Counted from the first letter of the stretch, positions 715 to 19,486 are shown. The stretch is 64,000 nucleotides of DNA from an uncultured Eubacteriales bacterium (GCA_900322215.1 ONYW01000001.1:30-64029), one strand, 5' to 3'. Made by a program: numbers and translations. The notes: a model not told the origin generated them from the letters alone.

Positions 715-746
715 CAAAAAATAGCGAGAGCCGTAGCCCTCGCTAT
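715..746 (-). terminator. Rho-independent terminator closing the phage-derived cassette
   Basis: Minus strand reads AUAGCGAGGG-CUACGG-CUCUCGCUAU followed by U6. The stem is 10-11 bp with a C(UACG)G-type loop. Confidence 0.8.
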
Positions 747-767
747 CACTGCGTAAATCTTGATTTT

Positions 768-1805
768 TCACCAATACGTTCTTCTCGTGCCGTTTATGGT
801 AGTCACTCTCGATTTTAGTTCTGTGAGCAGCTTGTCATAGTAGTTGCCGAGGTAGTATTTCATGCTGTTCGCGGTCTTGAGCGCGTTCACTGCGATGTCC
901 GGCGACAAGGACATATAAAAGTCGTAGGCAAGGTTGTAGCGGTTTTCGTATTCCGCGAGTTTTTCACCCGTATAGCCGTGTTCCTTTTCATACGCCTCCT
1001 GCGTTTTTTCCGCGACTTTTTCTTCCGCCGCCTTATCGCTCAAATACTTCTCGATATTCTTCTGCCTTTGAGTCTCGTATTTGGTTTGCTGTTCCCTTAT
1101 TTGGTTGTTATACTTTTCATACTGCAAGGCTGTCTCGTCTCGCTCGGCTTTCAAATCCGCAATACGATTTGCGAGTTCGGACGCATATTTGAGATCGAGT
1201 TCGGAGAGAGCGTTTTCCCTTTCCTGTTCGAGCGAATTTATCTTTGTGTTTATATCGCCGATCGTAGAGCGGTATGCGCTCTCTATCTCTCCCGCGGACA
1301 GCATTTTCGCCTCGTCGAGGTTGCCGAGTTGCGACATTATGATACTGCTTCTTGCAACGCCTCTCTTTATCGCGTCGTTTTCCGCCTTTTGCCTAAGTTC
1401 GTTATAGACCTTTTCAAGGTCGGCAAAACTCTCTTTCAGCGACTTGTCCGCCTGCGATTTGCTCTTATCAAGCGCGGAGAGAGAGGATTCGAAACCGCTC
1501 TCCACCTTATTCTTTTCCTTCGCCTTTTGATATTCGTTCTCCTTTGTCGCGGAATTAAGAATATCTTCGTCCGAGCGCGGAGTATATTCCACCTCTTTCA
1601 GCCCGGAGTCGCGAGGGAAAATGCTGTCGACGTCATACGTCTTCGCAGGCTTTGACTCTTTGTACTTTTTGTCGAGTTCCGCAAGTTGCTTTTCGAGTTC
1701 TTGCTCCCCCTCTTTCGCCTCGGCAAGTCTGCGCTTTTGCTCTTCGTCCTTTTGGTCGTCAGTTTTGAAAAGGTCTTTCAGGTCGTCCCAAAATGACATA
1801 TACAC
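768..1805 (-). CDS. Cassette coiled-coil protein (function unknown; possible tail needle/plug or internal protein)
   Basis: 345 aa with a long K/E/Q/A-rich heptad-like region. Strong RBS (uuAGGAGGuguauAUG). It is the last gene before the terminator. Confidence 0.5.
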   Translation of the reverse strand: MYMSFWDDLKDLFKTDDQKDEEQKRRLAEAKEGEQELEKQLAELDKKYKESKPAKTYDVDSIFPRDSGLKEVEYTPRSDEDILNSATKENEYQKAKEKNKVESGFESSLSALDKSKSQADKSLKESFADLEKVYNELRQKAENDAIKRGVARSSIIMSQLGNLDEAKMLSAGEIESAYRSTIGDINTKINSLEQERENALSELDLKYASELANRIADLKAERDETALQYEKYNNQIREQQTKYETQRQKNIEKYLSDKAAEEKVAEKTQEAYEKEHGYTGEKLAEYENRYNLAYDFYMSLSPDIAVNALKTANSMKYYLGNYYDKLLTELKSRVTTINGTRRTYW

Positions 1806-1808
1806 CTC

Positions 1809-1904
1809 CTAATTCCTGTTTTCGAGTGCTTTGACTCTCGCTTCCAAAAGTTGCACACGAGCAAGAAGTCCTTCAATTTGTTCTTGTAGTTCTTTGCTGT
1901 TCAT
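1809..1904 (-). CDS. 31-aa micro-ORF, leucine-zipper-like
   Basis: Translated by hand as MNSKELQEQIEGLLARVQLLEARVKALENRN. GAGGUG lies just upstream of the AUG. It fills the gap between the 479-aa and 345-aa genes exactly. It is below the length cut-off of the supplied ORF track. Confidence 0.45.
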   Translation of the reverse strand: MNSKELQEQIEGLLARVQLLEARVKALENRN

Positions 1905-1911
1905 ATTCACC

Positions 1912-3351
1912 TCATTCATTCATGAAGTCGACGACCGCAACGACGGGAGCGATCTCGAGTTTTTGTTCTTCCGAACATAGTTCTATACCTATCCGCACCC
2001 CGCTTTTTTCGACGATAATCCTCTTCGTGTTGTCCGAGCCGACGACGTCGAAAGTATAGGAGTTTTCGTCCGTTTTCACTGTCACCGTAACGTCGTGCTT
2101 AGATCTCACTTGCAGTTCGCGTATCGTCTTGCAGGCGGCGGTGCCGAGGTCGGAGAAAGGACTTGCATAGGTCTTTTTAAGATTGCTTCCAAACACCTGT
2201 CCCGAATCCGAAATCATTCCCAAGCGGTTTTTGTAGGTCTTGTCAAAGGCGCAAACGAGCATAGAACCGCTGTGCGTCTTGACTTCCCTTATCGCTCTCA
2301 CGTCAACGCCTACGAGTTCTGAGAGGCTCTTGTCAAACATATCGAAGACGACGACGGCGTTGTTTCTGAACCCCGTCGCATACTCCTCTCCCGCGTCGAT
2401 TTTGCAGGCGAGATAGAAGCGTTTGTCAAGGTATGCACCCACCGCTTCGTCGGCATCGTACACGCGCGGAAACTCCTTTGCGATTCGCACCACGTCATAA
2501 CCGTCAAAGGCAAAAAGTCCTTCGTCGGCGAGGAAGATAATTTTGTCGCCTGCAAGCACAATCGAGTTTTTATATATGCGTCCCGTATCGGTAAACACCT
2601 TTTTCAGCACAAAACTCTCTTGATCGCCGTACGCGGTGAGTCGGAATATGCCATAGTCTCTGAACACGTACAAATAGCCGAGAAAAGATATGACTTTGAC
2701 GATGTTTCCGCACTCGTCGGCAAACTCCACAAAGCCTGCGCCCGCAAGGTCGATGGTCCAATTCGCGGGGTTAAAGTCGTCGCTGAACCAAAGTCTCGTC
2801 TTTGCCCCGTTGACTGCGCCGAACACTCGCTCGCTGTGAATAGTGATTGACGCAAAATGCGGCGCTTCGTTGCAGGCGTACGCCACGTTCCCTTTGATAT
2901 AATAGAGTTGGTCGTCCTTGCTTGCGAGGAGCAAAATGTCCTCTCCGTTATAGCGGTAATTGACTGCCTCGACGTCCCCCGTGATAGTGAGATCCGAGAT
3001 TTGCGCCCACCCGCTCTCCGTCATGATTTTCGTAAACCAAAACGTACCGTCCGCAAGTTGTACGACGATACGGTAGTCGGGTGTGCCCGCCGCGTTGTAG
3101 TTGTAGGTGAAGACGTTCTTTATGGATTTTGACGAGGCGAATTTTGCAAACGTGTGGCGCGACTTGTTCGGGTATTCAAAAAACCCCGCCGCCGCATCCA
3201 TACCTATTGCCGCGCTCAATATTCCTCTTTCAAAGGTTACGTTGTGCGCGCGGTTGGAAAAGGCATAACCTAGTTCCTTCTCGTCGACCGTGTTCGCTAT
3301 GCCTTTGAAGCCGATTTTCAGCCTTCGCCTGTTTGTGGAAATAGCGCGCAT
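1912..3351 (-). CDS. Cassette 479-aa beta-rich protein (possible podovirus-type tail hub/nozzle; assignment by size and position only)
   Basis: Intact ORF whose start abuts the stop of the upstream gene (3353). It has repeated beta-strand-like segments and I recognise no motif in it. Confidence 0.45.
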   Translation of the reverse strand: MRAISTNRRRLKIGFKGIANTVDEKELGYAFSNRAHNVTFERGILSAAIGMDAAAGFFEYPNKSRHTFAKFASSKSIKNVFTYNYNAAGTPDYRIVVQLADGTFWFTKIMTESGWAQISDLTITGDVEAVNYRYNGEDILLLASKDDQLYYIKGNVAYACNEAPHFASITIHSERVFGAVNGAKTRLWFSDDFNPANWTIDLAGAGFVEFADECGNIVKVISFLGYLYVFRDYGIFRLTAYGDQESFVLKKVFTDTGRIYKNSIVLAGDKIIFLADEGLFAFDGYDVVRIAKEFPRVYDADEAVGAYLDKRFYLACKIDAGEEYATGFRNNAVVVFDMFDKSLSELVGVDVRAIREVKTHSGSMLVCAFDKTYKNRLGMISDSGQVFGSNLKKTYASPFSDLGTAACKTIRELQVRSKHDVTVTVKTDENSYTFDVVGSDNTKRIIVEKSGVRIGIELCSEEQKLEIAPVVAVVDFMNE

Positions 3352-3352
3352 A

Positions 3353-3898
3353 TCACCACCTCCTTTCTTTCAAAAACATCGTTCTTCCCTGGTATTTGAG
3401 TCTCGCCATGCCGTCTCTGAAATCGCTGTCGAAACTCTTGGCAAGGTCAAAGACTTTGTTTTGAAAATAGTACTCGGCAAGCACACCGCTGACGATAACG
3501 CCCGCCGTCACTCTTGCGTCGTCTATATCGTCCAAAAGGACAAAATCGGCGCTCGGAAGGTATGCGTACGTGAGTTTTGCCCTGCCCTTGTAGTCACAAA
3601 CGATTTTTGTCGGATAGGATTTGAACTTGATTTGCATATCTCCGCTCTCGAGCCGAATCGGATAGAGGATTTTGACGTCGTCAAGGTTTTCAAAAGCGAA
3701 TTCTCCGTTTTCGACGTTTATCTCTCTTGCGTCCACGAGCGGAAGATATGCGGACACTATCTCGCGGTATACGACGTTCACGTTGAACAGCAACCTGTCA
3801 ATAATTCTTTGTTCGTCGACGGTCAACTGTTCGTTGTCGACAAAATTGTCGAGCCCCATTTTGACGAGGCACTCGCCGATTATATTTTTTACTTTCAT
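3353..3898 (-). CDS. Cassette 181-aa protein (possible head-to-tail adaptor; assignment by size and position only)
   Basis: The ORF track gives 3353..3913. The internal AUG at 3898 (MKVKNIIGECL) starts 2 nt after the upstream stop at 3900. Confidence 0.45.
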   Translation of the reverse strand: MKVKNIIGECLVKMGLDNFVDNEQLTVDEQRIIDRLLFNVNVVYREIVSAYLPLVDAREINVENGEFAFENLDDVKILYPIRLESGDMQIKFKSYPTKIVCDYKGRAKLTYAYLPSADFVLLDDIDDARVTAGVIVSGVLAEYYFQNKVFDLAKSFDSDFRDGMARLKYQGRTMFLKERRW

Positions 3899-3899
3899 A

Positions 3900-4202
3900 T
3901 TACACCTCCGCACTCAGACACTTCTCAATCATATCCCTGCGTTTTCTATCGTCCAAGACGGCGTTTTGCCTGTCTATACGGGATATGAGCGCACGCATAT
4001 TTTCGAGTCGCGTCTCTCTTGCAAGCCTTATCGTCCGCGCGTCGAGACGCTCATAGGGTACTGCGATTTGCAGTACCCCGTTTGCGTGGATTTCAAATCT
4101 ATGCAGTTTTCTGTTTCTGAAAACCTCATATCTTTCGTCGATTTCTTTGAGTCGTGTCGTGATATCGAAAAGGTCGCCGTCTATCCTTTCAAGATGTGTC
4201 AT
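3900..4202 (-). CDS. Cassette 100-aa hypothetical protein
   Basis: Intact ORF starting 2 nt after the MCP stop. Basic and helical, with no recognised motif. Confidence 0.5.
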   Translation of the reverse strand: MTHLERIDGDLFDITTRLKEIDERYEVFRNRKLHRFEIHANGVLQIAVPYERLDARTIRLARETRLENMRALISRIDRQNAVLDDRKRRDMIEKCLSAEV

Positions 4203-4203
4203 C

Positions 4204-5583
4204 TTATTCCCAGGATGCGACGAGAGTCATATCGGCGTTGACTGTGTTTGCAAAGTTGAACTTCACGCCGTTTGAATACCAACCGTCAAAGGCAAAGCCG
4301 GACTTTGACGGATTGGCAGGTTGAGTGAGAAGTCCGCCCGGCAAAACGATTTGTGAACGAACGGCGCTACCGCCTTGAGAGTCAAAGTTGACCGTGTAGT
4401 ATTTTGCGTCGGAGTTGCCTGTGAACGTGAGTTTCGCTTGTCCCATCGGGCGTTCGCAAAGGAGGTCGGCGTATTTTACGAGAGTCGCGCTGTAGCATGC
4501 TTTGCCTGCGATTTGATGGAGCACCGTACCGCCCTCGCCCTCGAGCCATCTCCAGTCGCAAAGTTCGTGAAGTTTGAAGTCTTGGCTGTTCAAAAGGTAC
4601 ATATCGCCGTCTTTGACAAATCTGTCCGCGACGAACGGAATGCCCGAATAGGAGAGCGCCTTGTAGCCGCCGTCGAGTTCCAAATAGTCGATGTTGGTTC
4701 TGTTGCCGGCAAGGAAGTCTACGTATTGCTTTCTCACGTCGTAGGACGTGACGATAAAGTCGATTTTGCTGCCCGCGTTCTCTTCGACGTAGTCGATAGC
4801 GTCCTGAATTGCGGAGACCGTGACCGTGCCGTCAACCGTCTTTTTGTACGGTGTGAGGAAGGAGTAGTCCGCGCGGTTCAAACCGTAGATCTGCGCGCTG
4901 TCGCCAAAGATAGCCTCGAGGCCCGTGATTTCGTTGTTCTTTGAGCCTTGCACGTAGATTTTGTAGCCTGCGCCGTACTTTGAAGCAGCCGTAACGGAGA
5001 GTGTGACGACCTTTGTCGCTCTGTCGATTGCAACGATTCTCGCGCCGGAGAAAGTGGTGTCCTTGACGTCACCCGCCGAGTACATGTCGATGACCATACC
5101 CTCGATGAGACCTTTTATCGAGTCAACCGTGATTTGATTGTTCGTTGCGCCGACGTTTGTGACGGTCGTAGCGATAAGTCCCGTGCCGTCGCCGTAGAGC
5201 ATACGACCAAAGTTGAATTTGCTGGCTTTGAGAAGTCCGTCCATCTCCGCGTTCAAGAGGTTGACAAACGCGCCCGCGCTGTTTTGTGACGCACGGATAG
5301 CCTTGTCGGAGAGTTCGATCTTGCCGAACAAGTTTTTGAGAGTCAAAGTAAACTGTGCATAGTTGTTTCCGCCGCTCGCAGGCAAGTTGTCGTTTTCCGC
5401 GCCCGAACCGATACCGCCGTTGATGCCGTACGGAGCGAGTTTTTTGACCTCTTTGCCCCAAACGTCCGCCGTAGTGTGTTCAATCTTTGCAAGGAGCGGA
5501 TTCACGCCGACGTTGAGTTGGTCGGCAAGCACGCCGAGGTAAAAGGTTTTTAATGCCTTATCTGCACTTGATAATGTGACCAT
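4204..5583 (-). CDS. Phage major capsid protein (HK97-fold type) with C-terminal Listeria-Bacteroides repeat (Flg_new) domain
   Basis: 459 aa, positioned directly after the scaffold gene, with capsid-like composition (GRMLYGDGTG...). The last ~65 aa, YYTVNFDSQGGSAVRSQ...GFAFDGWYSNG...TLVASWE, match the Flg_new repeat pattern. Confidence 0.75.
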   Translation of the reverse strand: MVTLSSADKALKTFYLGVLADQLNVGVNPLLAKIEHTTADVWGKEVKKLAPYGINGGIGSGAENDNLPASGGNNYAQFTLTLKNLFGKIELSDKAIRASQNSAGAFVNLLNAEMDGLLKASKFNFGRMLYGDGTGLIATTVTNVGATNNQITVDSIKGLIEGMVIDMYSAGDVKDTTFSGARIVAIDRATKVVTLSVTAASKYGAGYKIYVQGSKNNEITGLEAIFGDSAQIYGLNRADYSFLTPYKKTVDGTVTVSAIQDAIDYVEENAGSKIDFIVTSYDVRKQYVDFLAGNRTNIDYLELDGGYKALSYSGIPFVADRFVKDGDMYLLNSQDFKLHELCDWRWLEGEGGTVLHQIAGKACYSATLVKYADLLCERPMGQAKLTFTGNSDAKYYTVNFDSQGGSAVRSQIVLPGGLLTQPANPSKSGFAFDGWYSNGVKFNFANTVNADMTLVASWE

Positions 5584-5598
5584 AATTTGTTGTCTCCT

Positions 5599-6531
5599 TT
5601 ATTTGTTTTCTTTGAGGAACATAAATCCCGCTTCTTCTATCGTCTTGGGAGACTTTGCAGAGGTCGCGAATTGCTTTCCGCCTCCGCCGAGCACGAGAGG
5701 CGGTTCGCCCTCGCGCACGCCCCTAAGGTATTCGGCGACGACCGCGTCCTTTACTGCCTGAGACTTCAAGACGTATTCGTTCAAAAATTGTCCGTCAGAG
5801 AGAAGTTGCTCGGGGGTACGGAACTTTGAAACAAGCGTTCTCGTCAGCGCGACGGAGAGGCAATTTTTGTCCTTTTTTAGTTCGGGGTGAGCGATGATCT
5901 CGTTTGCGATATCCTTTGAGAAGGCTTTTGCCGATGGGGTCTCTTCAAAAAACTTGTCCACAGCCGCCCTCCAGTCCTCCTCGCTCTTGAACGCCTCTTC
6001 GCGCGCGCTCTCCAACTCTTTGAGTTTTTGAGAACGCCTCGTAAATTCTTTTTCAAGTTCGCCGTATGCTTTGAGCAATTCTTCCGGGTTTTTGAATTTG
6101 CCGTATTTATGTTCTTCTTGTTGTTCTTCTTTTGGTTGTTCTTGTTTTTGTTGTTCGATGTTTTGTTGTTCTAAATCTTGTTGTTCCGCGCTCCGAGCCT
6201 CTTCGAGAGAGTCATTTTGCTCCGCTTGCTTTTGTTCGGCAGCCTCATCTCCAGTTTGAAAATCAGGCCTGATTATGCCTAGTTGTTCCTGCTCGTCTTT
6301 TTCATCGACGTCTTCGACATGCGCGTCAAGTTCTTCGCCGTCAGCGACTGCACTTGGCACTTCGATTTGTTCGATAATTTGCATAATCGCCTGTTTATCG
6401 TTGTCGTTTTGACGTGTAAACACGTTGTTTTGAGATTTTTCGCCGTCAAAGATGTTTTCTTCAAGAATCAAATCCGCGTCCTCGAAGATATTTTCTTTGC
6501 CAAAGACGTTCTCGATTTCCTGCTCCGACAT
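5599..6531 (-). CDS. Phage scaffolding protein
   Basis: About 310 aa from the AUG at 6531, which starts 4 nt after the portal stop. Extremely acidic, Q/E-rich and helical, and located between portal and MCP. Confidence 0.6.
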   Translation of the reverse strand: MSEQEIENVFGKENIFEDADLILEENIFDGEKSQNNVFTRQNDNDKQAIMQIIEQIEVPSAVADGEELDAHVEDVDEKDEQEQLGIIRPDFQTGDEAAEQKQAEQNDSLEEARSAEQQDLEQQNIEQQKQEQPKEEQQEEHKYGKFKNPEELLKAYGELEKEFTRRSQKLKELESAREEAFKSEEDWRAAVDKFFEETPSAKAFSKDIANEIIAHPELKKDKNCLSVALTRTLVSKFRTPEQLLSDGQFLNEYVLKSQAVKDAVVAEYLRGVREGEPPLVLGGGGKQFATSAKSPKTIEEAGFMFLKENK

Positions 6532-6535
6532 ATCC

Positions 6536-8422
6536 TTAAATTTCTTCGCTTTCAACTTTGTCTTCCCCCTCGAATTTTCTCGTGAGTTCTTGCACGCCTG
6601 CGTCAAGGCTTGCCAATTCTTTGTGCTTTGCGATATGCTCGGACACTCGCTCTTTCAGGTTCTTGTTCTTGTCGCATTTGGATGAGACGAACAACTTGAC
6701 GTGTTCCGCAATGTGAATGTCGTGGTCGTCGTACACGTCGGGAGTGACGCTCTTCTTTTCCAGGTCAAGGTTCTCTCTTCTTGCCTTTTTCACGTGGTTT
6801 TCTTGATAGTCGTTTCCGCTCTCCCAGTTGCCGAAACCGAGGATCTCGAAGAGTTTTGCTTTGGTTGAGGCAGGAAGTCTGCCGTTTTCGTCCGCAAAAA
6901 GTCCGAGACGGAGCAGGTCGTACACCATAGCGCGACGAGCGGACAGCGTGTCCTCTATCTCGTTGACCGTATCGAACACTATGTCTTCGCTCTCTATGTT
7001 TCCGCATGAGAAAGAGGCTGTCTCGACCTCGCCGTTTTCGCCGACTATACGCTTCACCCTCGGCACTTTTGCAAACTGGCGGTAAAGCCTGAGAATATGT
7101 TGTCCTATGCGCTTTACGCAGTCGCGCAGGCTGTCCGCAGTGAGTGAAATTCTCGTATCGTCCTGTTCGAGGAGCAGGGAGATTGCGGAGCCGGACGCAA
7201 CGTTTGTCGGAACTTGCGAATACGTCGTCACCTCGCTGACTCCGCTTATCATCGTGAACTCGTTGAGAAGTTTTTCTTCCTCTCGCGAAAACTCGGTCGG
7301 AATTTGCTGAGGAGAAAGCATGATAGGCGGTGTGCTACCCTGCCTGTACACAAGGATTTTTCCGGGCGGCAAGCCCTCTTCTTCGAGATTGTCCGTATCG
7401 CAAGAGCCGTCCTCCACCGCGAGTACGCCGAGCGCAATGCGGTTCATAAACTCGTGTTTTCTGTTCTTGACCGAGTTGTACGCGCGCTGAACGGGGATTA
7501 TCCTTTCCACCACGCTCGTGCCGAAGAAACTCGTGAGGTTTTCAAGGCACAGTTGGCGCGCGAACGGGTATGTTCTCTCTCCGTTCTCACCGTTCGTATA
7601 CGGAAGGTCGCCCATATAGACGAGTTTGTCTCCGGCGACGATTATGAGCCTGCCGTTTGGATATTCCTTCGTCGGTTTTTCATACTTTTCGATGACGGCG
7701 ACGGAGTCCTCCCTCTTTTCGCTGACGATAGACGGGAGAGTCGCGGAATATCCGAGTCCGCCCGCTACCTGCGTCCTGTCAAATGTGAACACGTTGACTT
7801 CTCCGCCCTTGACCTCCTTGTTCCAAATCTTCTTGACTTCGGCGGTCGTAAGCACCTTGACGTGCATAATCGAGGTTTGTTTGTCGATATCGGCGACGGA
7901 AATATCTTCTGGAAAGAGTTCAAAAGGCGGGCAAAGAGAGATTTCTACGTCGCCCTCTCGCATACCGTTTGAGTCAATTCTTTCTCCGTGGCTATTGTTC
8001 CAGGCGACTTTGAAAAACGCCGAGCCCGTGATCTCGCTCCACATATTTGCCTGCGCGAGTTGCGGTGCGAAGTCGTTCTCTTTGCACACCGCCTCGATAA
8101 GTTTTGTCGAGAGAGATGCGGAGGCGACGTCCATATCGTCGTTTGTCGCAGGACGGACTATCGGGTGCGCTTTGACTCTTGCGAGTTTTGCAAGTCTCGT
8201 CTCCAAAATCGGTGCGATATGGTTGTAGACTTCCCTTTGCTGCCAAAAGTAGTCTCTGTCCACGTTTGTGATGTCACCCTTTGGCGAGATCTCCGCAAAC
8301 TGGTTGCCCACGACAAAATTCATATTGAGTCGCCAGTTGAGTTCTACCGGGCGTCTTTGTTCCTGTCTTTTTTTGAAATCCGCAAGGATGTTTGCGACGA
8401 TTTCTTCTTCAAATTTTGACAT
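6536..8422 (-). CDS. Phage portal protein
   Basis: 628 aa between the terminase and scaffold genes. N-terminal NWRLNMNFVVGNQF-type portal motif and a long helical C-terminus. Confidence 0.75.
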   Translation of the reverse strand: MSKFEEEIVANILADFKKRQEQRRPVELNWRLNMNFVVGNQFAEISPKGDITNVDRDYFWQQREVYNHIAPILETRLAKLARVKAHPIVRPATNDDMDVASASLSTKLIEAVCKENDFAPQLAQANMWSEITGSAFFKVAWNNSHGERIDSNGMREGDVEISLCPPFELFPEDISVADIDKQTSIMHVKVLTTAEVKKIWNKEVKGGEVNVFTFDRTQVAGGLGYSATLPSIVSEKREDSVAVIEKYEKPTKEYPNGRLIIVAGDKLVYMGDLPYTNGENGERTYPFARQLCLENLTSFFGTSVVERIIPVQRAYNSVKNRKHEFMNRIALGVLAVEDGSCDTDNLEEEGLPPGKILVYRQGSTPPIMLSPQQIPTEFSREEEKLLNEFTMISGVSEVTTYSQVPTNVASGSAISLLLEQDDTRISLTADSLRDCVKRIGQHILRLYRQFAKVPRVKRIVGENGEVETASFSCGNIESEDIVFDTVNEIEDTLSARRAMVYDLLRLGLFADENGRLPASTKAKLFEILGFGNWESGNDYQENHVKKARRENLDLEKKSVTPDVYDDHDIHIAEHVKLFVSSKCDKNKNLKERVSEHIAKHKELASLDAGVQELTRKFEGEDKVESEEI

Positions 8423-8437
8423 GTTTTTCTCCTATAA

Positions 8438-8758
8438 TTAAAGACGGCTCTCACCGTCTTTTGATTTTTGTTTTTTGGTTGTTGCTTTCTTTTTGTCGTC
8501 CTGCTTTTTAAGCTCGTCGAGCAGGCGGATTTTTTCTTGTTCGAGTTCTTCGTCGGACATATCCGTATACGATTTTTCCGGCGATAGTTCAAGATAGGTT
8601 TTGAGTGCCGCGCTGTCGGGAGGACAATACTTTTTGACGATCTTCTTCTTTGTCAAAATGCTGTCTCCGTTCTCGGTCACCGTATACTCTTCCTGCACCT
8701 CGTCATAGGTGTAGCCAATAGCCTTTTTGAGCAAGGCTTTTACAATTTGCTCGTCCAT
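8438..8758 (-). CDS. Short terminase small-subunit-like protein (C-terminal core only, no N-terminal HTH)
   Basis: 106 aa. KKAIGYTYDEVQEEY...KKKIVKKYCPPDSAALKTYL resembles the A-GY-Y-E...KK...PPD..A...L block I recall from phage TerS proteins. It overlaps the TerL stop by 19 nt. Confidence 0.45.
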   Translation of the reverse strand: MDEQIVKALLKKAIGYTYDEVQEEYTVTENGDSILTKKKIVKKYCPPDSAALKTYLELSPEKSYTDMSDEELEQEKIRLLDELKKQDDKKKATTKKQKSKDGESRL

Positions 8759-10200
8759 TTGTTCTGTCTTATCACGCTCCTGAGAAGTTTTTCCTTGTCG
8801 AGTTGGATCTCGCTCTTAGGCTCCGGGACTGGTATTTGCGGGGCGGGCCTTGACATGACGAAGTAGCGCATTTCGTCGAGCGCGTGGTCGTCTACCTTTT
8901 TTGGTCTGTCGCCTGCGCCCCACCAATACGATTTGATTTCACGAATGAGATTTACGCAGTTTTTGAAGATGTAAAGTTTTGGCGGTTTTTGACAAAACAA
9001 GGACTTTACACGCTGAATACCCGTGTATAAATCCTTGTTTACGTTTGTATTCACAAGAATACCCTTTTCAGAAAACAACTCTGCCACGCTCTTTTCGGAG
9101 GACAAAGTGTGTTGATTTGCGGCGCTGTCTATGAGCGCGTAGAGCCTGCCCTTCGAGTCCTTCGGCCAGTCAAGGCGGTTGGCGATTTCAAAGATTTTCT
9201 CAACGTGATAGTCTATCGTTTTGCCTCCCGCAAAATGCTCGGCTATGACGTATATCGTGCCGTCGTAGTCAACGGCATAGAAGTGACAGGACGTAGGATT
9301 TGTGAGTCCCGGGTCAATTGAAATCATATTGTACCAGTCCTTTGGCACGGAGAAAGGCTCTATCACGTGGACGTTTGCGTCAAACTCCGGATATACAAGC
9401 CCCTCGCCCGAGAAGAACCTGCCGTACCTCCTCGACTTTTGCTCGTCCTCGGACATTACGCTCGTCATAAAATTCACTTCACGAGAATCGAGATAGGGGT
9501 TGTCCGCCCACTCCATATACTCGCACCACACCTCGTCCGAGCCTGATACGTTGAGTTCTATCTCGTCGTACACCCAGGTGAGTCCTTTGAGCGGAGTCAT
9601 AGTCCCGAAGATCTCGCCGCGTTTGTCAAAGACTCGCATTTTGCACTCGTCGTAGACGTCCTTTGGCGGTTCTTCGTCAAACCATACGAAGTCGAGCGAC
9701 GTGCCCTGAAACTTTTCCCTGCCCTGATCGCAGGACTTAAAGCCGATTTTTGAGATGCCTCCAAACGAATTGCGGACTGCGATATGGTCGATTATGCCAT
9801 ACTCGGGCGAAGACTTTTTGCCCTCTCGCATGACTATGTCGACTATATGTCTTTGAGGAAGGTATTTGAGGATTTTCGCCTGCGCCACATCGCGCTGTAC
9901 CTGCTGCGTGAGGCTCACAACCCACCCGAATACGTCGCGCCTGTTCTCCCTGTAGGGATGAATGCCGAGCGCAAGCCAAACGCTCTCCACCGCACCGCAC
10001 TCCGTCTTGCCCGAGCGGTTGCCTCCAAAAACCCAACGATTGCGCTTTTGACATTTGTGAAACGCCATTTGCTTTGCATGCACCAAGTCTTTGTTGTAGT
10101 TTTTGAGCGCGTCGGTCGCGCGGAGTCTTTGTTCCTTTTCGATATTCAACAACTTTTCAACGATTTCAAAATCTTTCATACCGAGATAATAACCCCGCAT
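8740..10200 (-). CDS. Phage terminase large subunit
   Basis: Walker A GGNRSGKTE, Walker B LDFVWFDEEP, and a C-terminal nuclease-like region (ISIDPG...). The start is uncertain: AUG at 10200 or 10179, and the track's 10290 start is a UUG. Confidence 0.85.
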   Translation of the reverse strand: MRGYYLGMKDFEIVEKLLNIEKEQRLRATDALKNYNKDLVHAKQMAFHKCQKRNRWVFGGNRSGKTECGAVESVWLALGIHPYRENRRDVFGWVVSLTQQVQRDVAQAKILKYLPQRHIVDIVMREGKKSSPEYGIIDHIAVRNSFGGISKIGFKSCDQGREKFQGTSLDFVWFDEEPPKDVYDECKMRVFDKRGEIFGTMTPLKGLTWVYDEIELNVSGSDEVWCEYMEWADNPYLDSREVNFMTSVMSEDEQKSRRYGRFFSGEGLVYPEFDANVHVIEPFSVPKDWYNMISIDPGLTNPTSCHFYAVDYDGTIYVIAEHFAGGKTIDYHVEKIFEIANRLDWPKDSKGRLYALIDSAANQHTLSSEKSVAELFSEKGILVNTNVNKDLYTGIQRVKSLFCQKPPKLYIFKNCVNLIREIKSYWWGAGDRPKKVDDHALDEMRYFVMSRPAPQIPVPEPKSEIQLDKEKLLRSVIRQNKWTSKL

Positions 10201-10313
10201 ATATTCGGATTTCAAAAAATTGTGCCAAATTTTTTCAGAGAAAAACAAAAAAATCTCGCCAATCTCAAATAAACACTTTTTTTTTGGCAAGGATTATAGT
10301 ATTATATATATGT

Positions 10314-11348
10314 ATGAGAAAGAATACGTTCAACAAAGTAGCAGCCATTTTGATTGTCGCAATCGCCATTGCCGTCATACTCCTGACGGCTTTGTCCATT
10401 TACGTTCCTGCCTTCACGGCATACGCGGAGGACGAGCAAACTGCGGAGACCATCACGACAAAGTGCATCAAAATCGCCCCTGCCGACCTTGAACACAGCG
10501 CATATTCTTCCCCGACGTCCATAGCCGTCAAGGATCTTGACACTGACGAAACGGTTTTTTATATTCCGGACAGTTATTATCTCACGGGAGTCGAATACAG
10601 GAAGATCGCAAGATTCAACTTCGAATACTACGCTTTTTCCTATGCGGGACTCGACACGAGCAAGTGGTATATCGACTATTCCGAAGCGTTGACGGTTGAG
10701 ACAGTCACGTTCACCGCGGACGAAACCCCCTTCCCCGACGTCCGTCTCACACTCATTGACACAGGCGAAACCGTCTATCTCGACAACGATACCGTGCTTA
10801 CAAACGAGTATACCATCAAGTTTATAGGCTTTAATCAAACGGGCGACGAGTTTTACGTCTCGGCGACAAAGGACGGCGTGACGAAATATGCCATGATCGG
10901 CAAGACGCTCTTCACCGACAGTTATATACCGTATCAAGCGCGCACGCAAGCGGCTCGAGAGCAACTGCTCAAAGAGATCGCCGCAACGCCAAAGGCGGGA
11001 GATATTGTGCCGAACACGTCAAAGACTCTTCGTATCATTTTGATAGTCGGTATATGCGTCCCCGCGGTGCTCATCGTCGTACTCCTGTTCAAACCGACGA
11101 AGGGCTCGCAAAAGCGTACGCTTGCCCGCGAACGCGGAAGAGACGAGTTTGACTATGACGAGCGCAGAGAATACCGTCGCGACCGCTATGACGACAGGCG
11201 CGACTACCGAGACGATAGACGAGACTACCGAGACGACAGGCGCGATGATAGGCGCGACTATCGCGATGACCGAAGAGATGATTACCGAGACGACAGGCGG
11301 GATTATCGTGACGAGAGAAGAGATGATTACCGCGACGATAGAAGATAA
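10314..11348 (+). CDS. Single-pass-anchored membrane protein with C-terminal Arg/Asp (RD) repeat tail
   Basis: N-terminal TM (AAILIVAIAIAVILL), a second TM near residue 270, then about 70 aa of DRRDYRDDRRD-type repeats. The AUG at 10314 is preferred over the UUG at 10284. Confidence 0.55.
   Translation: MRKNTFNKVAAILIVAIAIAVILLTALSIYVPAFTAYAEDEQTAETITTKCIKIAPADLEHSAYSSPTSIAVKDLDTDETVFYIPDSYYLTGVEYRKIARFNFEYYAFSYAGLDTSKWYIDYSEALTVETVTFTADETPFPDVRLTLIDTGETVYLDNDTVLTNEYTIKFIGFNQTGDEFYVSATKDGVTKYAMIGKTLFTDSYIPYQARTQAAREQLLKEIAATPKAGDIVPNTSKTLRIILIVGICVPAVLIVVLLFKPTKGSQKRTLARERGRDEFDYDERREYRRDRYDDRRDYRDDRRDYRDDRRDDRRDYRDDRRDDYRDDRRDYRDERRDDYRDDRR
11136..11345 (+). repeat. Coding low-complexity tandem repeat (RD/DYR repeats)
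   Basis: Iterated cgcgactaccgagacgac-like units encode the RDDRRDYRDD tail. Confidence 0.7.
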
Positions 11349-18225: not shown

Positions 18226-19486
18226 TTATTCTTTATCTTCCTTATCGCTATCGGATAAGTTTTCGTCCTGTTTATTCTTTTCGCAAACGAAGTTTCCCTC
18301 TTGCGAACTATCACAAGCGATAGTTGCCTCTTCGCTCAACTTTTTGCTCTTCTTCTCGTCAATTTTCGTTTTGAGTTTTTCGCATACCGAGTACACTCCC
18401 TTCTCCACCGCTCCGCCGAGCGCCATAACGCCGTAGTACGCGGTGTGGCGGTAAATCACGGACAACGAAACTGTGAGTCCCAACACTATGCAGGAGAGCG
18501 TGAGGACGGCAAGCCAAAAGTTTTGCACGCCGTATGCGTCGAGAAAATATTCCATATACCCCGAACGCTGTTGAAAGAGCAAGCGTTGATGTATGAGGTA
18601 CATGAGAAGCGTCATGCCGGAAAAATAGTTCACTATCTTGTTGTATCTCGGCTTTCTCGTCGCGAGGTTAATTGCAGCCAGCGCCCACACGACGATTATC
18701 GGGTTGTTGATGTGAGCATAATAATACTGCCTTTCCGCAACGTACTCGTTTGCAAGTCCTATATAGTTCATCGCGATCCTAAACGCGACGTACAGCGCGG
18801 TCGTCACGAAGAGCATACAAACGTTGAACTTTTTAGACTCCCACAACTTTCCGCCGTACAGTTTGTAAAACGCGACGGCAAAGTAGATGGACACAAAACA
18901 CAAAAATTTGAGTCCTACAGCCCCGGTCTCTCCCCCATCGCAAACAAAATCACGTTGCACTGCACGATGAGTATTAGGGTGACGATAGCCAAGCCCTTTT
19001 TGTCGAGTTTTCATAATTGAAAAGCGGATGGAACAAATAGAACACTATATAATAGCCGACAAACCAATTCACCTGCAAAAACGTCGGGAAAATCGCCTCC
19101 AAAATTTGTGTGGCGGAGATCTCGTCCCCTATCGCCGCGCGCACGACGAGTGCGGAAGACATAATTATGACGTCGGACGCCATCAAAAAGAAGACTTTCT
19201 TTACGCTTATTCTGTTGCTTTCAAGGAGGAAATACGCCGAACACGCGATAAACACCACGTCGGCAAACAGCCCGAGAGGGCCGATAAACAACAAAAACAA
19301 AAATTGCGGATCAGTCGTCACCGTACCCGAAAAATCAACTGTTCCGCCTATTCCCGAGTAGGAATACGGGTTGATTTGATGCGCAAAAACAATGACCACC
19401 ATAGAGATGATTTTTAGGAGTTCTACGTTTGAATTGCGCTGTTTTTTTGCGGACGACGATTCCATAATCAAATGCCTGTGCGGCAA
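18226..19486 (-). pseudogene. Acyltransferase-3 (OatA-like) family membrane protein split into two frames
   Basis: The N-terminal fragment (170 aa, 18974..19486; VELLKIISMVVIVFAHQ motif) and the C-terminal fragment (18226..19014) overlap in different frames. This indicates a frameshift, a sequencing error or programmed slippage. Confidence 0.55.

Follow-up and report, generated by a model that had tools for sequence, protein, structure and literature searches.

The stretch of DNA analysed here, referred to below as the window, covers 64,000 nucleotides from an uncultured Eubacteriales bacterium (GCA_900322215.1 ONYW01000001.1:30-64029) and carries, on the minus strand between positions 768 and 10290, a compact operon of phage head and packaging genes. 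This cassette spans 9.5 kb and consists of nine open reading frames (ORFs) of at least 100 amino acids (aa) plus one of 31 aa, which are tightly spaced or overlapping. By its gene content, the operon is predicted to encode a complete set of head, packaging-motor and neck proteins together with four conserved small or coiled-coil proteins. Three of its products, a portal of the P22 family, a podovirus capsid protein with the HK97 fold and a nozzle of the beta-propeller type, place it with virion modules of the P22/SU10 type. The features of the locus are the following.

10314-11348, plus strand: DIV, a divergently transcribed membrane protein adjoining TerL (ORF opens at 10284)
10180-10313, no strand assigned: divergent control region between DIV and TerL, with elements conserved in relatives
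8740-10179, minus strand: TerL, large terminase (packaging ATPase and nuclease); Terminase_6N (4e-11), Terminase_6C, phrog_2 (1e-31)
8438-8758, minus strand: TerS-like protein, 106 aa; phrog_309 (6e-9)
6536-8422, minus strand: portal of the P22/SU10 type, 628 aa; PF16510 (P22_portal, 1e-19), PF23899, phrog_156 (2e-38)
5599-6555, minus strand: acidic, Q/E-rich scaffolding-like protein, 318 aa, between the portal and capsid genes
4204-5583, minus strand: major capsid protein, HK97-fold podovirus type; NCBIfam NF033394 capsid_maj_Podo (4e-78), phrog_14242 (8e-56)
3900-4202, minus strand: conserved 100-aa protein (cluster c8), kept at this position in 70 loci; no family match
3353-3898, minus strand: conserved 181-aa protein (cluster c5), directly before the nozzle gene
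1912-3351, minus strand: predicted beta-propeller tail nozzle, 479 aa (AlphaFold and Foldseek); phrog_3287 "virion structural protein" (1e-10)
1809-1904, minus strand: ORF of a 31-aa coiled-coil peptide with its own GAGG ribosome-binding site
768-1799, minus strand: DUF7934 protein, 343 aa, last gene of the operon; PF25588 (3e-94)
720-747, minus strand: intrinsic terminator closing the operon, a 12-bp stem with six GC pairs followed by the T run TTTTGCTATA

An earlier note on this DNA had described ten coupled minus-strand ORFs ending in a strong terminator, among them genes for TerL, a small terminase, a portal and a capsid protein. All of these ORFs exist and the terminator lies at 747-720; the count of ten holds if the 31-aa ORF at 1809-1904, a gene that is also called in relatives, is added to the nine longer ones. 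The sizes had to be adjusted for four genes (TerL, the scaffold, the 181-aa protein and DUF7934), whose starts were revised from the gene calls on a longer contig of the same genome (L096) and from family medians. The TerL frame is open to 10290, and its likely start, M38 at 10179, yields a protein of 479 aa, equal to the family median; translation therefore probably begins at 10179 and not at 10290. The calls on the longer contig give the scaffold 318 aa and place the start of the 181-aa gene at 3898 (within an open frame of 186 aa) and that of the DUF7934 gene at 1799, which yields 343 aa in place of the 345 reported before.

The identities given in that note to TerL, the portal and the capsid protein were confirmed by the terminase motifs and by matches to Terminase_6N/6C, PF16510 and NF033394. 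TerL possesses a Walker A motif (GGNRSGKT) and a Walker B motif (LDFVWFDEEP), which are kept in 57/57 and 56/57 species orthologues, respectively. The adjacent 106-aa protein does match a small-terminase family, as had been suggested, but the match is restricted to the C-terminal third of the phrog_309 profile (positions 195-305 of 319). This protein belongs to a uniformly short family (85-130 aa) in which 24 of 31 members match phrog_309 and three match phrog_23444. It exhibits no recognisable N-terminal DNA-binding domain, and it found no match in a sequence-profile search of the PDB, nor any to the TerS of phage-like relatives by profile comparison. It would thus be a small terminase deprived of its DNA-recognition domain.

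Between the portal and capsid genes, the acidic protein is proposed to act as a scaffold on the basis of its position and composition. Its conservation in relatives is confined to the C-terminal ~170 residues, and searches of Pfam, PHROG and NCBIfam returned neither a family match nor a protease domain. The capsid protein itself carries an additional C-terminal Listeria-Bacteroides repeat (Flg_new, PF09479, 3e-14; ~4216-4398, minus strand). This domain is found only in the clade of the window, where the capsid protein reaches 455-477 aa vs ~390 aa elsewhere, and may represent a surface-exposed adhesion or decoration domain.

The strongest structural assignment downstream of the capsid gene concerns the 479-aa protein, for which a nozzle role had been put forward from size and gene order. 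An AlphaFold model built from 58 homologues (pLDDT 92.9, pTM 0.90) retrieved short-tailed-phage nozzles as all of its top PDB matches by Foldseek, with Pa223 (E 3e-20, TM-score 0.75) and VP1 (TM-score 0.76) followed by GP4, SU10, P22 gp10 and T7 gp12. According to this model, the protein is a podovirus tail nozzle. The 181-aa protein, in turn, can be regarded tentatively as a head-to-tail adaptor: its position agrees with this role, one of 30 family members weakly matches phrog_2377 ("head-tail adaptor Ad1"), and the gene occupying the same place in a true phage-like relative (L104) shows a weak SU10_adaptor match. This part of the earlier proposal found no backing in direct comparisons, the protein having no PDB sequence match and no profile similarity to the L104 adaptor; more broadly, comparing profiles with those of the adaptor, the TerS and the small ORFs from phage-like relatives yielded no match. 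The 100-aa protein, whose position is taken by a 115-aa ORF in L104, is probably a head-completion or neck protein, as judged from its place in the operon.

The 31-aa gene is called at the same place in three relatives (L002, L004 and L098), while a 55-aa gene stands there in L001 and ~120-aa genes (clusters c46/c71/c76) in other clades. The operon ends with DUF7934, for which the model (pLDDT 87.5) is all-helical, helices 79-147 and 154-276 forming a long coiled coil that is accompanied by a small conserved C-terminal bundle. Its suggested likeness to a needle or plug such as P22 gp26 was not sustained: the model resembles neither gp26 nor any needle at a significant level, only generic coiled coils being recovered (E >=0.1 in the PDB, >=3e-3 in BFVD). 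The weak fold matches found besides, with "internal virion proteins" and with uncharacterised proteins of podoviruses, were treated as a lead only. DUF7934 is absent among 50,697 deposited phage records. A virion-associated role, as plug, needle or internal protein, is nevertheless presumed for it.

Upstream of TerL, elements recognised by eye in an alignment of more than 30 relatives delineate the region from which the operon is presumably transcribed. An element of the form TGGCACAAT-TTTTTG at 10213-10227 (minus strand) resembles an extended -10 box and has no -35 box; this motif occurs once in the window vs zero occurrences expected by chance, and its strict form precedes TerL in seven loci. 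This TGnCAYAAT-like element, ~45 nt upstream of TerL, is a putative promoter. A second element, CAAAWWnAAAGyCTTTA, is conserved in the same intergenic region.

The divergent gene on the other side of this region encodes a bitopic protein. A hydropathy scan of 51 members predicted a signal/anchor segment, an extracytoplasmic domain of ~200 aa, one transmembrane helix and a cytoplasmic tail, the length of which ranges between 7 and 120 aa among lineages. In the clade of the window, this tail is made up of R/D/Y repeats (RDYRDDRRD...). DIV has no match in Pfam, PHROG or NCBIfam. Its homologues (clusters c9/c16/c70) are found divergent beside TerL in 53 of the 80 species loci described below, and its ratio of non-synonymous to synonymous substitution rates (dN/dS) is 0.18 against L002. 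DIV is therefore a conserved partner of the cassette; it could function as a regulator, a receptor or an exclusion protein. A role as anti-sigma factor was considered and rejected: its sole support was a sub-threshold Sigma_reg_N match, and the topology, with a large domain outside and a tail inside, is unlike that of classical anti-sigma factors.

The cassette is embedded in ordinary chromosomal DNA, as had been noticed from the methylase gene on one side and from Lit and YhhN on the other. On the left lies a PF06962 (MnmM-type) methylase gene; L096, which extends further in this direction, shows DUF1294 and then a MetQIN transporter beyond it. On the right, beyond DIV, are found genes for Lit, YhhN, P-II, DUF1538, YitT, acyltransferases, an aldose epimerase and other sugar or metabolic functions. 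In this flank, Acyl_transf_3 is spread over two adjacent ORFs (18226-19486, minus strand) of 170 aa (profile positions 2-142) and 262 aa (188-325), which may correspond to a frameshifted gene or a pseudogene. The GC content is 0.494 in the cassette vs 0.490 in the remaining window, with no shift at the cassette boundary, and the 64 kb contain no tRNA. Family searches with Pfam, PHROG and NCBIfam detected no protease, integrase, repressor, replication, fibre or lysis domain in the cassette proteins, as the earlier note had stated for most of these functions. Neither the window nor the next 6 kb leftward contains an integrase, replication, repressor, fibre or lysis gene, and homologues of the sigma-like, holin and fibre-like genes linked to the cassette in other lineages are likewise lacking elsewhere in the window.

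A scan of one genome per GTDB species revealed at least 573 stretches encoding a relative of the portal, and the best 80 loci were mapped with flanks of up to 10 kb. Almost all of these 80 are labelled as Clostridia or as Christensenella/Christensenellaceae metagenome-assembled genomes, from human, ruminant, rabbit, chicken and other guts. They share one common architecture: (sigma-like gene) (DIV) TerL, TerS-like, portal, scaffold, capsid, 100-aa, 181-aa, nozzle, (small gene), DUF7934, (BhlA holin) (second holin). The flanks consist of housekeeping genes which depend on the clade and include IleS, a SAM methyltransferase, an RluA-type pseudouridine synthase, MurG, GyrA/B-type subunits, MurC and OGG. 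No integrase accompanies the cassette in any of the 80 loci, and no contiguous prophage modules were present within the flanks.

In other lineages, the sigma-like gene matches Sigma70_r4_2 and phrog_36, and the holins that follow DUF7934 belong to PF10960 (BhlA) and Phage_holin_1. The clade of the window (portal identity ~65% or more) has kept DIV and is devoid of the adjacent sigma-like gene and of the two holins of most other clades. In eight other lineages, one to three extra genes are inserted between the nozzle and DUF7934 genes; the first one always begins with MDYGK[LIT]AYLK, and one of the extra genes matches a "tail protein" PHROG. The genes with this shared start probably encode modular receptor-binding (fibre-like) proteins.

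Several loci deviate in other ways. In one lineage (L077, L079, L080, L082, L085, L086 and L095), a gene of cluster c26, coding for a protein of 700-1120 aa that starts with a signal peptide and matches nothing in Pfam, is located between TerL and the TerS-like gene. In L064 (4685-6100 and its neighbour), two tandem ORFs of ~470 aa (cluster c113) stand in place of the missing TerL, immediately before the TerS-like and portal genes, and may reflect another insertion of a mobile element into the cassette. Five loci (L022, L053, L045, L049 and L055) are labelled Butyrivibrio crossotus, Phascolarctobacterium succinatutens, Acidaminococcus sp. CAG:917 or Bacteroidaceae; since the cassette and flanks of L022 and L053 are syntenic with Christensenellales-type loci, these look like mislabelled or contaminated bins. 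Many Logan contigs with a 76%-identical portal share a length of ~25.5 kb and were considered as a possible small complete phage, an idea that was abandoned as L001 proved to be ordinary chromosomal sequence with a recurrent assembly break.

Real prophages were encountered inside the cassette on three "viral" contigs of IMG/VR which contain DUF7934 (L101, 4051-7568; L102, 2182-6316; L103, 1-3493). In each of these elements, genes for a tail fibre (Mtd_N) and a baseplate (Gp10_C) precede a tandem pair of large serine recombinases. The element stops directly upstream of a truncated cassette gene, of which the remaining part starts at codon ~380 of capsid (L101), codon ~22 of capsid (L102) or codon ~313 of TerL (L103). 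The insertions are reminiscent of intervening elements of the skin/sigK type. By analogy, serine-recombinase prophages may toggle particle production on and off.

The preservation of the cassette was assessed at three levels. Where the contig covers the gene, orthologues are full-length for the portal in 80/80 cases, the capsid in 74/74, the nozzle in 65/65, the 181-aa protein in 67/68 and DUF7934 in 60/61. With L098, the closest relative, as reference, dN/dS spans 0.05-0.16 in cassette genes and equally 0.05-0.16 in the host genes beside them, at similar dS; comparison with more distant relatives, for which dS is saturated, gives 0.06-0.23 where dS could be estimated. Individual values are 0.09 for TerL, 0.05 for the capsid protein and 0.11 for DUF7934. 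Co-divergence with the host was examined by Mantel tests on pairwise protein distances in 16 genomes sharing the DUF1538/YitT neighbourhood; these replaced a rank correlation of identities to the window, which was uninformative because all relatives lie at about the same distance. Between cassette and host genes, the matrices correlate with r of 0.5-0.9, up to 0.91 for the portal vs DUF1538 and for DUF7934 vs a 164-aa host protein (p = 0.0005), in comparison with 0.82-0.89 for host genes among themselves. These results fit long-term vertical maintenance by selection.

Collectively, these data point to what is left of a short-tailed phage of the P22/SU10 kind, a locus fixed in the chromosome and passed on vertically that is kept by Christensenellales for building particles and is similar to a gene transfer agent (GTA), a reading to which we assign a probability of about 0.72. 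That the locus is selectively maintained and forms particles is highly probable; that it transfers DNA stands at even odds, and GTA activity in the full sense, with packaging and transfer of host DNA, is what we infer from the whole. Two traits of a strict GTA are found at the locus, namely host-resident structural genes free of integration, replication and immunity functions, and vertical inheritance under purifying selection. A third, the packaging of random host fragments shorter than the 9.5-kb locus, would be in keeping, indirectly, with the missing DNA-binding part of the TerS-like protein and with GTA-like reads of 4-6 kb reported for Christensenellaceae without an assigned locus. The earlier note had seen in the locus a host-maintained particle and not a dying prophage, which the intact orthologues, purifying selection and co-divergence with host genes now support. 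It had also named what would speak against its reading. The missing prophage modules proved not to be contiguous, either in the window and 6 kb to its left or around the 80 related loci; orthologues in relatives are not disrupted; and the structure search identified one of the downstream proteins as a tail nozzle. The comparison of synteny and dN/dS, which the note had proposed as a check, gave a single conserved architecture with cassette values equal to those of flanking host genes. The host-maintained reading survived every such test that could be run and is supported.

Other explanations were weighed against these observations. The absence of most phage modules would be expected of a cryptic prophage remnant in neutral decay and devoid of function. 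However, the genes are intact in 80 species-level genomes, with dN/dS of ~0.1 and conserved catalytic motifs, although frameshifts would be expected over a dS above 1, and this explanation is effectively refuted. An intact or inducible prophage does not account for the locus either, given that contiguous lysogeny, replication, tail and lysis modules were not found. A locus restricted to head and packaging functions, with real serine-recombinase prophages beside or within it on some contigs, also recalls a capsid-forming satellite or island of the cf-PICI type, mobilised by a helper and borrowing its tails, lysis and replication. This alternative, raised in the earlier note, is now disfavoured and very unlikely: no integrase, primase/replicase, repressor, regulator or att repeat was detected, the cassette encodes its own nozzle, it holds a fixed position among housekeeping genes and has co-diverged with them over family-level distances, and the prophages of L101-L103 interrupt cassette genes, with no sign of cooperation. 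Together, intact genes, purifying selection, co-divergence and the lack of a close phage exclude neutral decay and make a mobile satellite hardly credible.

A domesticated particle might also serve another function, either as a PBSX-like killing or lysis particle, as a device for DNA release or biofilm formation, or as a DNA-filled capsid that does not deliver its content. No fibre or receptor-binding gene is present in the cassette of the window's clade and holins are linked to the cassette in other clades. Furthermore, the authors who described FpGTA, a GTA-like element of Faecalibacterium prausnitzii (Nat Commun 2026;17:2046; PMC12946183; bioRxiv 2024.11.15.623857), state that delivery of DNA was not shown and that it may act like PBSX (PMC12946183). 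Yet the nozzle and the probable adaptor are conserved under purifying selection, pointing to a tail that ejects DNA; in eight lineages the cassette contains fibre-like genes that have their N-terminus in common; and there is no tailocin-like sheath or tube. A particle of this other kind is considered unlikely.

Some points weigh against the preferred interpretation as a GTA-like locus. For this organism, particles, packaged DNA and transfer are predictions. Receptor-binding, lysis and regulator genes are absent from the 64 kb, so that a complete functional system is at most putative here; the TerS assignment depends on a partial profile match, and searches bearing on the adaptor and DUF7934 roles gave no firm match. 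In addition, about ten of the 80 species lack an adjacent block of TerL, sigma-like gene and DIV while their remaining genes are intact. This may reflect a relocation of the block comparable to dispersed GTA loci, or else packaging may be dispensable in these species.

A mechanism can be proposed for the GTA-like reading. A conserved, activator-dependent promoter would drive the operon, under a sigma-like late activator that is encoded beside the operon in most lineages and would be located elsewhere in this genome. Small HK97-fold capsids would assemble on the portal with the help of the scaffold and without protease. TerL and a TerS-like protein unable to recognise DNA would then pack any available DNA, mostly chromosomal, by a headful mechanism, after which the 181-aa protein and the nozzle would close the portal vertex, DUF7934 being part of the particle as plug, needle or internal protein. 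Particles would be released by cell lysis, and receptor-binding and lysis genes would reside at a second locus, as in FpGTA. A more far-reaching proposal is less likely than not: that of an order-wide, anciently domesticated, podovirus-derived GTA of Christensenellales, independent of FpGTA, which would be controlled by a pair formed by the sigma-like activator and the bitopic membrane protein, would be the basis of the 4-6 kb packaging seen for Christensenellaceae in human faecal virus-like particles, and would use prophages as on/off switches in TerL and capsid genes.

Christensenellales, which are almost uncultured, count among the gut bacteria with the highest heritability and the strongest association with health. 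A full-text literature search returned no paper describing their cassette or DUF7934. If the GTA-like interpretation is correct, this conserved particle-forming operon would constitute a major, so far unassigned route of gene flow among them. Such loci are called "viral" by prediction tools, as illustrated by the IMG/VR matches obtained here, and the host DNA that they carry would be a contaminant of virome data. For Christensenellaceae, packaging of DNA in a GTA-like manner has been reported from nanopore sequencing of faecal virus-like particles, with no locus identified, for HGM11616 (~4.1 kb) and QANA01 (~6.3 kb) (PMC12946183). With its ten genes, promoter region and putative activator, the cassette provides a concrete candidate locus for this packaging.

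Among known systems, the P22/SU10-type podoviruses (P22/Sf6, SU10, VP1, GP4, Pa223 and T7) share with the cassette the order TerL, portal, scaffold, coat, small protein, adaptor-position gene and nozzle, as well as the portal family, the nozzle fold (TM-score 0.55-0.76) and a scaffold without protease. In contrast, the cassette is devoid of ejection proteins, tailspikes, fibres and the rest of a phage genome, and DUF7934 is without counterpart in solved tails. The nearest portal and capsid proteins of cultured phages are only 24-30% identical and belong to the actinophages Shocker and Jasmine (portals ~24%), no close relative of the cassette being present among the 50,697 phage records. The alphaproteobacterial GTAs (RcGTA, CcGTA), BaGTA, VSH-1, Dd1 and VTA similarly consist of a domesticated head and packaging cluster, inherited vertically under purifying selection, and combine a TerS without DNA specificity with dispersed auxiliary genes, two traits that are presumed for the cassette. 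These GTAs, however, are siphovirus- or myovirus-like, with a tape measure and a tail tube, while the present locus is podovirus-like; there is no detectable sequence relationship, and CtrA/GafA regulation there differs from the sigma-like factor here. PBSX and PBSX-like Bacillus prophages offer another parallel, putative on the side of the cassette, of a non-replicating particle maintained by a Gram-positive host, filled with random host DNA, turned on by a sigma-like activator and released by holin lysis. PBSX differs in being a myovirus-like killing particle, produced from a contiguous defective prophage of ~28 kb with repressor and tail genes.

The closest known system, as compared by architecture and by the annotation of its proteins (RCH50844-RCH50852), is FpGTA. 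FpGTA is a ten-ORF operon of ~10 kb producing 40-nm particles loaded with ~8.5-9 kb of host DNA; nearly the whole genus carries it, and replication or integration genes are absent from it (PMC12946183). Its terminal coiled-coil protein ("TolA") is the third most abundant in purified particles, and the genes for its fibres, receptor-binding protein, holin and endolysin lie at a distance of 125 kb (PMC12946183). The cassette is likewise a stand-alone ten-ORF operon of ~10 kb in a Gram-positive gut anaerobe, with TerL, a TerS or TerS-like protein without recognisable DNA-binding domain, a portal, a gene in scaffold position, a capsid protein, a nozzle and a coiled-coil protein as last gene, in the same order from the portal onwards. 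The names of homologue matches and a cluster look-up of ten distant portal representatives included no Faecalibacterium entry. Besides the different host order, the capsid protein is of the N4-gp56 family in FpGTA and of the capsid_maj_Podo family here, with no N4-gp56 match; TerS lies upstream of TerL in FpGTA, whereas the TerS-like gene lies downstream here; and the gene between portal and capsid is Prp protease-like in FpGTA, in contrast to the acidic scaffold of the cassette. The conserved DIV, and in most lineages a sigma-like gene and holins inside the locus, further distinguish the cassette from FpGTA. Taken with FpGTA, short-tailed GTA-like elements would be a recurrent feature of Gram-positive gut anaerobes and not a single oddity.

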